Below are positions 3,859 to 51,044 of a stretch of 64,000 nucleotides of DNA, in pieces. This DNA is from Shigella phage Sf24: the sequence record MF327008, one strand, 5' to 3'. The notes beneath the pieces are model-generated. The model ran no database searches. It saw only the letters and a list, made by a program, of their open reading frames with translations, and had not been told where the DNA came from. The first letter of the stretch is position 1, and every line of letters starts with the position of its first letter. The position numbers and the translations under genes are program-made.

Positions 3859-4058
3859 GATTTATCCCCATAGATATCTCTCATCAATTTAAGTGCTGAG
3901 CGTTCTAATTTCTTTTCTTTCTCAGCACTAATCATTGATTTCATCCATTCTTCCGATTCGTTCTGCATTTCTTTATTTGCCTGTTCAACCCAACCATCGT
4001 CAATATACATTGAGTTTGGTCTATTGAACCATTCAAACATTTTCTTCAGAACTTTCAT
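3855..4058 (-). CDS. hypothetical small protein (67 aa)
   Basis: Track ORF. Confidence 0.45.
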
Positions 4059-4551
4059 TTATTTTACCTAAAACAACAGTAGGAGCATCATCAAATTCAT
4101 GAATTTTTAGCAAATTTGGATGTAAACTATTCCATACAGAAGAAATAAAGTATGATAAAGCATCTTCACTCACAATTATAAATTTATTTCCTTTATCTAT
4201 TTTCCAGCTATATACTGAATCATACGAATAGAAAGATAGAGGATTATCATTATATTGTTCTGCGCTAACATTAATGTATTCGGATTTAGTAAATGCTTCA
4301 ATTGCTCTAAATGGAATATTTGGTACAGTTTCAATAATTCCGATCTTTTTAAGTTTTATTTCAGCATCTTCTGGAACTGGCATTGAAACAAAATTTTCTA
4401 CGAGATACATTGGGTCACAATAACCCTTATCAATCATTACTGCTACGGTAATTGGAACGTCTTTAGCAAACGACATACTATTACTGCTAATATACATTTC
4501 AAACAAAATCGCTTCCATAATTTTCCTCAATCGCAAGATGTAGATGAACAA
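4033..4551 (-). CDS. hypothetical protein (172 aa)
   Basis: Track ORF. Confidence 0.55.
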
Positions 4552-47655: not shown

Positions 47656-48237
47656 CTAACCGAGCTTTTTAGTTAATTCATTCCAATGTTTTCTACACAA
47701 AGAAACATAAATTTCATCACCAATACAGATTTGATTACCTTCTTTAACTGGTGTTCCATCTTCCATTAATCGAGCTGTCATAATCGCTTTTTTACCACAA
47801 TGACAAACTGCCTTTAGTTCAATAAGTTTATCTGCAATCGCTAAAAGTTCTTTAGAACCTTCAAACAATTTTCCAGCGAAATCAGTCCTTAATCCATAAG
47901 CCATAACAGGAACATTATATGTATCAACAATTCGGCTCAATTGATGTACTTGTTCAGTTTTTAAAAATTGGGCTTCATCTACAAATACGCAATGAATATC
48001 TTTTTGTGCTTCAGCCCATTTATAGAACTCGAAAATATCCATATCATCTGTAATAATATTCGCTTCCTGTTTAATTCCAATGCGAGAAACAACTTCACAG
48101 ACAGAATCGCGAGTATCAATAGCAGGCTTAAGAACTAATACACTCATTCCGCGTTCTTTATAATTATGTGCAGCAGTTAAAAGAGAAGCAGATTTTCCAG
48201 CATTCATTGCTGCATAAGTAAAAATTAAACTCGCCAT
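47656..48237 (-). CDS. tk: thymidine kinase
   Basis: 193 aa; P-loop AAMNAGKS; Zn-ribbon-like CHCGKK. Confidence 0.92.
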   Translation of the reverse strand: MASLIFTYAAMNAGKSASLLTAAHNYKERGMSVLVLKPAIDTRDSVCEVVSRIGIKQEANIITDDMDIFEFYKWAEAQKDIHCVFVDEAQFLKTEQVHQLSRIVDTYNVPVMAYGLRTDFAGKLFEGSKELLAIADKLIELKAVCHCGKKAIMTARLMEDGTPVKEGNQICIGDEIYVSLCRKHWNELTKKLG

Positions 48238-48427: not shown

Positions 48428-48609
48428 AAAGAATTTATATAATCAATGAGTTCTTGTTCTTTATTATCGAATTCTTTAGAAAGTTCTTCGTATTCATTTG
48501 CATTAAAAGGACCGCATTCATCACAAACTTTTTCCAATTCACTGTTTTTATCCATAACTTCGTGGATAAGAGAAAAGAGTTTGTCTTTTTGTTCTTTGCT
48601 TAAACTCAT
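48424..48609 (-). CDS. hypothetical protein (61 aa)
   Basis: Track ORF; similar to previous ORF (both begin M..REQK.., acidic coiled-coil-like). Confidence 0.5.
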   Translation of the reverse strand: MSLSKEQKDKLFSLIHEVMDKNSELEKVCDECGPFNANEYEELSKEFDNKEQELIDYINSL

Positions 48610-48775
48610 ATATTAATTTCCAAAAGTTTTAAAATAATTCGCTTTTGCTTAAATATTTCCACAGTTAAATGATCAGTATCTTTTTGACCAATTCCAATGG
48701 CAAAACCTTTATTAACAGCGAGTTCAATTAAATTATCAAGTTCACGTAACACTTCATATTGTAACTCAGAACTAT

Positions 48776-49003
48776 TCATTTCGGTTTACCTTCTTTAACG
48801 AAATCTGGATAAGGATAAAATCCCGAATAAAATCCTTCACCTTTATGATTGATGCATCCTTTATTAGAACAATAGCACCAATAATCGAAATCACAAGCCA
48901 TTTCATCGTTGCATAAAGCAAAAACAACCGGCCATTTACACTTTTCACAGTGGGCATTTTTAAGAATACTAGTTTGGCTCATAACCATGTAACCTTTAAG
49001 CAA
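48776..49003 (-). CDS. hypothetical Cys-rich protein (75 aa)
   Basis: Track ORF; CEKCKW...CYCSNKGCINH; preferred over overlapping 48772-48957 frame. Confidence 0.45.
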   Translation of the reverse strand: MLKGYMVMSQTSILKNAHCEKCKWPVVFALCNDEMACDFDYWCYCSNKGCINHKGEGFYSGFYPYPDFVKEGKPK

Positions 49004-49191
49004 TATTCTTCTACATGTTGTTTACGACCTTTCTTATCAATAAAGGTATATTCAACGAATGTCCCAATGTAGTCTTTATCTACATCATGTGGACTATTAA
49101 TTGGACATTTAGTACGGCAAATGCGTTCCCATTGACGAATAATTACTGCTTTGTTTTTAGGATCAAACGGATGTGGGTAATGCACTTTCAT
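48979..49191 (-). CDS. hypothetical protein (70 aa)
   Basis: Track ORF. Confidence 0.45.
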   Translation of the reverse strand: MKVHYPHPFDPKNKAVIIRQWERICRTKCPINSPHDVDKDYIGTFVEYTFIDKKGRKQHVEEYCLKVTWL

Positions 49192-49642
49192 AATCCACCA
49201 CTATTAAATCAATATCAGGAGTAAACATGTCGATTAATTTAGAAACCTTATCCCAATCGCCGCCAGCAATACCACAACCTATGCGTGGAATGTAAATTAC
49301 CGGTTTAAACAAAAGGGTTTCTGCCTGTAGATTTAATTCTATCATGCAGTTTACTAAAGCACCATAATCAAGATTAGGACCTGGTTCGTATTGCGTATAC
49401 AGGTTATAGCATATACCAAATCCCGTAGGACTATGTTTAAAAACAATAGACATATCGCCTAATTTATCGCGAGAACCGTACTCAGTAGTGGTTTTATCTA
49501 TTTCTAAAATTTTGGGATAGGCTCTGGCTAATTGACCCGCTACACCTGAACCCATAGTATGAAAACAATTGCACCCGTGCGCAATAATATTACCTTGAAG
49601 AAATAGGGCGACAATATCGCCCTTGATATATTTTACAATCAT
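49163..49642 (-). CDS. macrodomain-like protein (159 aa)
   Basis: GDIV...AHGCNC...MGSGVAGQL and IPRIGCGIAGGDW resemble macrodomain glycine-rich signatures. Confidence 0.55.
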   Translation of the reverse strand: MIVKYIKGDIVALFLQGNIIAHGCNCFHTMGSGVAGQLARAYPKILEIDKTTTEYGSRDKLGDMSIVFKHSPTGFGICYNLYTQYEPGPNLDYGALVNCMIELNLQAETLLFKPVIYIPRIGCGIAGGDWDKVSKLIDMFTPDIDLIVVDYESALPTSV

Positions 49643-51014: not shown

Positions 51015-51044
51015 ATTATACCACAGTCAAGAGGAAAAGTAAAC
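51015..51044 (-). promoter_or_regulatory. early promoter upstream of regB
   Basis: GTTTAC-N18-TATAAT. Confidence 0.7.

Follow-up and report, generated by a model that had tools for sequence, protein, structure and literature searches.

The 159-residue protein studied here, from Shigella phage Sf24, is a member of both the macrodomain superfamily and the Tk.4/AdfM orthologue group of T4-like phages. It probably acts as a stand-alone glycohydrolase on phage single-stranded DNA, freeing thymidine of the ADP-ribose attached by DarT2, with a chemistry like that of SCO6735 from Streptomyces coelicolor. DarTG systems block phage DNA replication through DNA ADP-ribosylation, and the initial annotation had named counter-defence against DarTG among the possible roles of this protein. 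That suggestion is supported by the genetics reported for the T4 counterpart (10.1101/2025.11.20.689424): the anti-DarTG2 function of the macrodomain is already known from T4 tk.4, and what had been put forward as an open lead had already been published.

The published evidence comes from two phages. According to the HIDEN-SEQ preprint of 20 November 2025, tk.4 was the single significant hit of a T4 transposon screen on a DarTG2 host; a clean tk.4 knockout sensitised T4 to DarTG2, and the gene was renamed adfM for anti-DarT factor Macrodomain (10.1101/2025.11.20.689424). Its authors noted the likeness of the product to the macrodomain of Mycobacterium tuberculosis (Mtb) DarG, and removal of ADP-ribose from DNA thymidine by T4 Tk.4 was regarded there as likely but was not measured (10.1101/2025.11.20.689424). 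T4 without adfA and adfN remains DarTG2-resistant (PMC11825919). In phage PhiKZ, gp104, independently named AdfM, removes DarT2-made ADP-ribose from a TNTC oligonucleotide in vitro (Cell Rep 2026, PMC13309987), and the N23A mutant of this protein has reduced activity; by its own statement, the Cell Reports paper knows of no earlier macrodomain Adf (PMC13309987). The T4 reference record already gives an "A1pp phosphatase motif" for tk.4, and several GenBank records label the homologue as a macro domain protein.

The macrodomain gene and its surroundings

The window, that is the whole stretch of 64,000 nucleotides analysed here (sequence record MF327008), comes from a T4-like phage of the Tequatrovirus group that is distinct from T4 itself (megablast). 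The 159-aa ORF claimed at 49163-49642 is present, lies on the minus strand and starts with ATG. The gene, its borders and the segment in which it departs from T4 are as follows:

49163..49642, minus strand: macrodomain gene, 159 aa, from the ORF list with ATG start; positional counterpart of T4 tk.4 (adfM)
49639..49642, minus strand: ATGA overlap between the vs stop and the macrodomain start, read directly from the sequence
49163..49191, minus strand: 29-nt overlap between the 3' end of the macrodomain gene and the start of the tk.3 counterpart (DUF7202), from ORF coordinates
49159..49505, minus strand: divergent allele segment, about residues 46-159, from sliding identity in a MAFFT alignment with T4

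The Pfam Macro profile (PF01661) matches the ORF with E=1.3e-7 and 32 bits (curated cut-off, 22), the match spanning residues 22-136 of the ORF and positions 2-117 of the 118 in the profile. PHROG 335, which carries the label "phosphatase", matches with E=1e-71, and a tblastn search of the phage collection returned homologues in 2,788 phage records, Pseudomonas and Vibrio phages outside the T4-like group being among the carriers of the family. Given the above-threshold Pfam match, the PHROG match and the number of phage records, the ORF is judged to be a real gene and a chance ORF is excluded. ICP1 AdfB was considered as the homologue behind the Vibrio phage match and dropped, the AdfB paper describing a direct inhibitor of DarT with low similarity to DarG and no indication of a macrodomain.

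On the minus strand, the gene order is tk, two small ORFs resembling tk.1 and tk.2, a 57-aa ORF, a 75-aa zinc-binding ORF, the DUF7202 ORF, the macrodomain gene, vs, vs.1 (SLT-like) and regB. The gene thus occupies the tk.4 slot of T4, with the counterparts of tk.3 and vs on either side, and the description of its position as next to the tk region holds: tk (47656-48237) lies downstream of the macrodomain gene, at a distance of five small ORFs. A darT gene is not found beside it, the adjoining genes being the tk.3 counterpart and vs. The neighbours are close to those of T4 in protein identity (tk 99.5%, tk.1 96.8%, tk.2 95.1%, tk.3 95.7%, vs 97.4%, vs.1 100%, regB 99.3%). Two ORFs between the tk.2 and tk.3 counterparts are missing from T4, namely the 57-aa ORF (48606..48779, minus strand, phrog_3452) and the 75-aa ORF (48776..49003, minus strand, Pfam Phage_zn_bind PF23895, E=3e-29); the two (48606-49003) make up a small insertion, the rest of the region being about 98% identical to T4. 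Elsewhere in the window, srd is located at 883-1626.

The ATGA overlap suggests coupled translation of vs and the macrodomain gene within one transcription unit. At the other end, T4 tk.4 overlaps tk.3 by 4 nt, the T4 protein being 4 residues shorter than that of the window. Several further elements were seen in and around the gene. Inside the macrodomain ORF lies a sequence (TGCTTTA-N13-TAGAAT, 49336-49361, minus strand) similar to the MotA-dependent middle promoters of T4; T4 has cGCTTTA-N13-TAGAAT at this place, which is the only island of 72% identity in the divergent segment. The site could drive transcription of tk.3 to tk; in the window, 21 MotA-like middle promoter sites were counted where 5.3 were expected. 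A perfect 8-bp GC-rich hairpin (AGGGCGATATTGTCGCCCT, 49605-49623) lies at codons 7-13 of the same ORF, with the identical sequence in T4; it was scored terminator-like on both strands and may be due to chance. A sigma-70 promoter scan of the region gave 21 sites compared with 21.2 in shuffled sequence and is therefore uninformative on timing. Just upstream of regB, a strong sigma-70-like match occurs at 51015-51043 on the minus strand (TTTACT-17-TATAAT with an extended -10 TG); by consensus match, early transcription of the regB-vs.1-vs-tk.4 unit may start here.

Relationship to T4 Tk.4

In a BLASTP comparison the window protein is 58% identical to T4 Tk.4 (E=1e-70), and the alignment runs without gaps over 155 residues. 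By this similarity and by its position the gene is classed as an orthologue of T4 tk.4. Both proteins consist of the macrodomain only (159 aa in the window, 155 aa in T4), begin with the same nine residues, MIVKYIKGD, and are near-identical over their first 45 residues or so; H22, N25 and the Y-T-Q84 motif, which are invariant in the family, are common to both. The second glycine-rich loop differs, IGCGIAGGDW in the window protein corresponding to IGAGIGKGNW in T4 Tk.4.

The 42% of positions at which the two proteins differ lie mostly in the C-terminal two thirds. In nucleotides, both flanks agree with T4 at 92-100%, the first 140 nt or so of the gene at 82-88% and the stretch 49159-49505 at only 47-72%. 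Such a drop inside a gene between near-identical flanks indicates that recombination swapped in the C-terminal two thirds. Within the phage collection, about 311 records carry the window-type allele (at least 90% identity); phage JK1, for example, has it with 100% identity. About 224 records have the T4-type allele, and 159 more show 80-90% identity to it. In T2 the allele is the same as in T4. Another divergent allele is present in the mrh counterpart (4039-4518), which is only 76% identical to T4.

Compared with the family, it is the T4 allele that deviates in the second loop (PRIGAGIGKGNW), while the window allele (PRIGCGIAGGDW) stays nearer the consensus, and for this reason the window allele is likely to be catalytically competent. 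We infer for this 58%-identical allele the same activity and the same target as for T4 Tk.4.

Fold, class and active site

The AlphaFold2 model of the 159-aa protein, built with 39 homologues as input and with the T4 sequence left out, reached a pLDDT of 91.9 and a pTM of 0.87. Foldseek placed Poa1p first among its PDB matches, together with TARG1, BT1257, the DarG proteins of Thermus aquaticus and M. tuberculosis, and SCO6735, all at a probability of 1.0 with TM values of 0.64-0.74 among the top 22. Sequence searches of the PDB returned the same set of macrodomains, with E-values of 3e-10 for BT1257, 1.6e-9 for Poa1p and 4.8e-5 for DarG. Profile and structure searches, both proposed in the initial annotation, therefore agree on a macrodomain; the predicted three-layer alpha/beta macro fold is confident, and the top PDB matches are all macrodomains, as expected from the claim of a macrodomain with ADP-ribose-binding loops. 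Both glycine-rich motifs named there were found in the translation, at residues 21-38 and 118-130, and the active site comprises three elements:

49529..49582, minus strand: first ADP-ribose-binding loop region AHGCNCFHTMGSGVAGQL, residues 21-38, holding H22, N25 and G33 (translation and invariant columns)
49391..49399, minus strand: Y82-T83-Q84 motif, invariant (HMM alignments to reference macrodomains)
49253..49291, minus strand: second glycine-rich loop IPRIGCGIAGGDW, residues 118-130 (translation and column comparison)

G8, H22, G23, N25, C26, G33, A35, D49, G62, N80, Y82, T83, Q84, P119, G122, G124 and W130 are invariant in 39-40 homologues. In family-profile HMM alignments, Q84 stands opposite Lys80 of the Mtb and T. 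aquaticus DarG proteins (NFPTK), Lys84 of TARG1 (LITK) and a glutamine of BT1257, and A126 stands opposite Asp125 of TARG1. Neither the Lys84/Asp125 catalytic dyad of TARG1 nor Lys80 from the FPTK motif of DarG is thus present in the window protein, which has Gln84 and Ala126 instead. SCO6735 carries Gln85 where TARG1 has Lys84 and DarG has Lys80, and its Q85A exchange abolishes activity (PMC9411070); the equivalence of Q84 and SCO6735 Gln85 runs through TARG1 K84 and DarG K80 and not through a direct alignment. A direct comparison of the C-terminal 100 residues with the PDB aligned SCO6735 over the second loop alone (PRIGCGLAGGTW in SCO6735), and the second loop of the window protein is near-identical to those of SCO6735 (LPRIGCGLAGGTW) and BT1257 (MPRIGCGLAGGKW). 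We classify the window protein as Gln-type, with glutamine in place of the catalytic lysine, as in SCO6735. Judged by sequence and model together, it is a stand-alone macrodomain of the ALC1-like class, to which TARG1, DarG, Poa1p and SCO6735 belong.

Among these relatives, SCO6735 (PDB 5e3b) is itself a stand-alone Gln-type ALC1-like macrodomain whose PRIGCG(L/I)AGGxW loop is nearly that of the window protein, and it confers protection from DarT although it has no DarT partner. It is encoded by a bacterial chromosomal gene with a RecA-NDp-type promoter and is about 26% identical to the phage protein; its mobile loop is longer and contains Lys89 and Lys94, while in the window protein Q84 is followed by a short lysine-free YEPGPN. 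A further stand-alone homologue, 40% identical, is found on the chromosome of Pelagimonas phthalicica (L003, 6001-6459). No DarT gene occurs near it in its housekeeping neighbourhood, an observation from one genome that proves little, and its setting resembles that of SCO6735.

DarG (T. aquaticus 5m31, M. tuberculosis 5m3i) shares the fold class, but its activity on thymidine-linked ADP-ribose is demonstrated, while the same substrate is inferred for the window protein. DarG was the best model in both NCBIfam and PADLOC, with the macro part alone matched; the NCBIfam model NF048014 gave 27.6 bits against a cut-off of 250 over profile positions 2-138 of 338, so that by this profile the C-terminal DarT-binding domain of DarG is absent from the 159-aa protein. 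DarG combines Lys80, this C-terminal domain and an adjacent darT gene; the window protein has Gln84 and lacks the other two. For these three reasons it is placed outside the DarG family, yet it is expected to act like the DarG macrodomain on the same adduct. Since its sequence is closer to BT1257 and Poa1p than to DarG, a substrate other or broader than that of DarG is possible.

PhiKZ gp104 is likewise a stand-alone anti-DarTG2 macrodomain of a phage, and N25 of the window protein aligns with its active-site asparagine N23. It enters the phage nucleus by import and is of the DarG type, with a lysine in FPTKDNW and an E-value of 9e-25 to Mtb DarG. Against BT1257, TARG1, SCO6735 and Poa1p it gave no match at E<=1, and its pairwise match to the window protein (E=0.001) covers 23 residues. 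Because the one has glutamine where the other has lysine, and because gp104 is DarG-like and barely alignable with the window protein, the Gln-type AdfM of T4 and its relatives is regarded as a lineage separate from the Lys-type AdfM of PhiKZ.

In sequence and fold, the solved structures nearest to the window protein are yeast Poa1p (6lfq) and BT1257 from Bacteroides (2fg1), at 21-26% identity. BT1257 shares the glutamine and the PRIGCGLAGGKW loop with the window protein. Poa1p shares the HxCNC motif (HGCNC in the window protein, HSCNC in Poa1p), in which H22 aligns with H23 of Poa1p, the residue exchanged in the deposited mutant H23A (6lfs). Poa1p itself is an ADP-ribose-1''-phosphate (Appr1p) phosphatase, and this relationship raises the question whether the phage protein likewise clears Appr1p, a by-product of RNA repair or splicing, as the older "A1pp phosphatase" annotation implies. 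The first rank of Poa1p in the structure search, its strong sequence match, the common motif including the histidine mutated in 6lfs, and the phosphatase labels of the T4 record and PHROG 335 all point in this direction. We nevertheless consider a phosphatase function unlikely. Hydrolysis of Appr1p in vitro is a side activity of many macrodomains, the labels derive from homology and not from an assay, and only residues 3-79 match Poa1p strongly in sequence. Moreover, the sole phenotype reported for T4 tk.4 is specific for DarTG2 (10.1101/2025.11.20.689424).

Mode of action and implications

Removal of ADP-ribose from DNA thymidine is the function we favour for the window protein, and its course may be pictured as follows. 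The macrodomain would be made from the vs-tk.4-tk transcription unit of the T4-like phage. In the host, DarTG2 would release DarT2, thymidine in single-stranded DNA would be ADP-ribosylated and replication would be blocked. With its two glycine-rich loops, the phage macrodomain would hold the ADP-ribose and hydrolyse the bond between thymidine and ribose, so that replicable DNA is restored. Gln84 would position the distal ribose for attack by an activated water molecule, with no catalytic lysine being involved, as in SCO6735 and unlike DarG. SCO6735 removes thymidine-linked ADP-ribose from DNA and protects against DarT, and a water-mediated mechanism was proposed for it by its authors (PMC9411070).

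As the window protein has no DarT-binding C-terminal domain, protection would rest mainly on catalysis. The alternative, namely that DarT2 is neutralised mainly by stoichiometric binding of the toxin and not by hydrolysis of the DNA adduct, draws on the finding that the dead Q85A variant of SCO6735 still inhibits DarT in vitro, and does so more than dead DarG or dead TARG1 (PMC9411070). Rapid turnover of alleles would also fit co-evolution with a protein partner. Nonetheless, toxin binding as the main mode of action appears improbable: the domain through which DarG binds DarT is the very part left unmatched in the NCBIfam alignment (2-138 of 338), and the residues of the catalytic pocket are all invariant across the family, which argues for selection on catalysis.

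A further suggestion was that the macrodomain undoes or recognises protein ADP-ribosylation carried out by the phage's own ModA and ModB, to which Alt may be added. Both genes were indeed found in the same window on the minus strand, modA at 1753-2352 and modB at 2352-2972 (with 99% and 97.6% identity to their T4 counterparts). TARG1 and SCO6735 are also able to remove the modification from proteins (PMC9411070), but the macrodomain gene is separated from modA and modB by 47 kb with no genetic linkage, and its family also occurs in many phage groups that are not T4-like, Pseudomonas and Vibrio phages for example. ModA, ModB and Alt are arginine-specific, and to our knowledge arginine-linked ADP-ribose is removed by enzymes of the ARH/DraG type and is not a substrate of ALC1-like macrodomains. 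As the class is not known to cleave this linkage, the suggestion found no support and such a role is very unlikely. Least probable of all is degradation or sequestration of ADP-ribose-derived immune signals such as the gcADPR of Thoeris, a role likewise proposed at the outset: some macrodomains are predicted, as a general point, to act on cyclic ADPR derivatives in TIR systems (PMC9503650), but nothing ties this protein to Thoeris signals, homology to known anti-Thoeris proteins was not seen, the phenotype in the T4 screen was DarTG2-specific (10.1101/2025.11.20.689424), and the nearest structures are hydrolases of Appr1p or of ADP-ribose linked to macromolecules.

Beyond hydrolysis of the DarT2-made adduct by this one protein, the allele structure bears a wider possibility, which we offer as a speculation that is more doubtful than not. 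The tk.4/adfM slot may be a hypervariable counter-defence cassette, in which deeply diverged alleles recombine among T4-like phages and differ in the DarT2 variants or other nucleic-acid ADP-ribosyltransferases they neutralise, all by a Gln-dependent chemistry that does without lysine and whose origin is independent of host DarG.

A phage macrodomain that erases the DarT2 mark explains the DarTG2 resistance of T-even phages, as has been published for T4, and with AdfM the T-even set of anti-DarT factors, AdfA, AdfN and AdfM, is complete. About half of the sequenced T4-like phages with a macrodomain gene carry an allele very different from that of T4. AdfM of the T4 type is not a captured DarG but a glutamine-type enzyme like SCO6735, and the name AdfM now stands for two unrelated lineages of phage macrodomains, T4 Tk.4 and PhiKZ gp104. 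These findings bear on the prediction of phage host range on clinical strains that carry DarTG, and on the cleavage of DNA-linked ADP-ribose by macrodomains.
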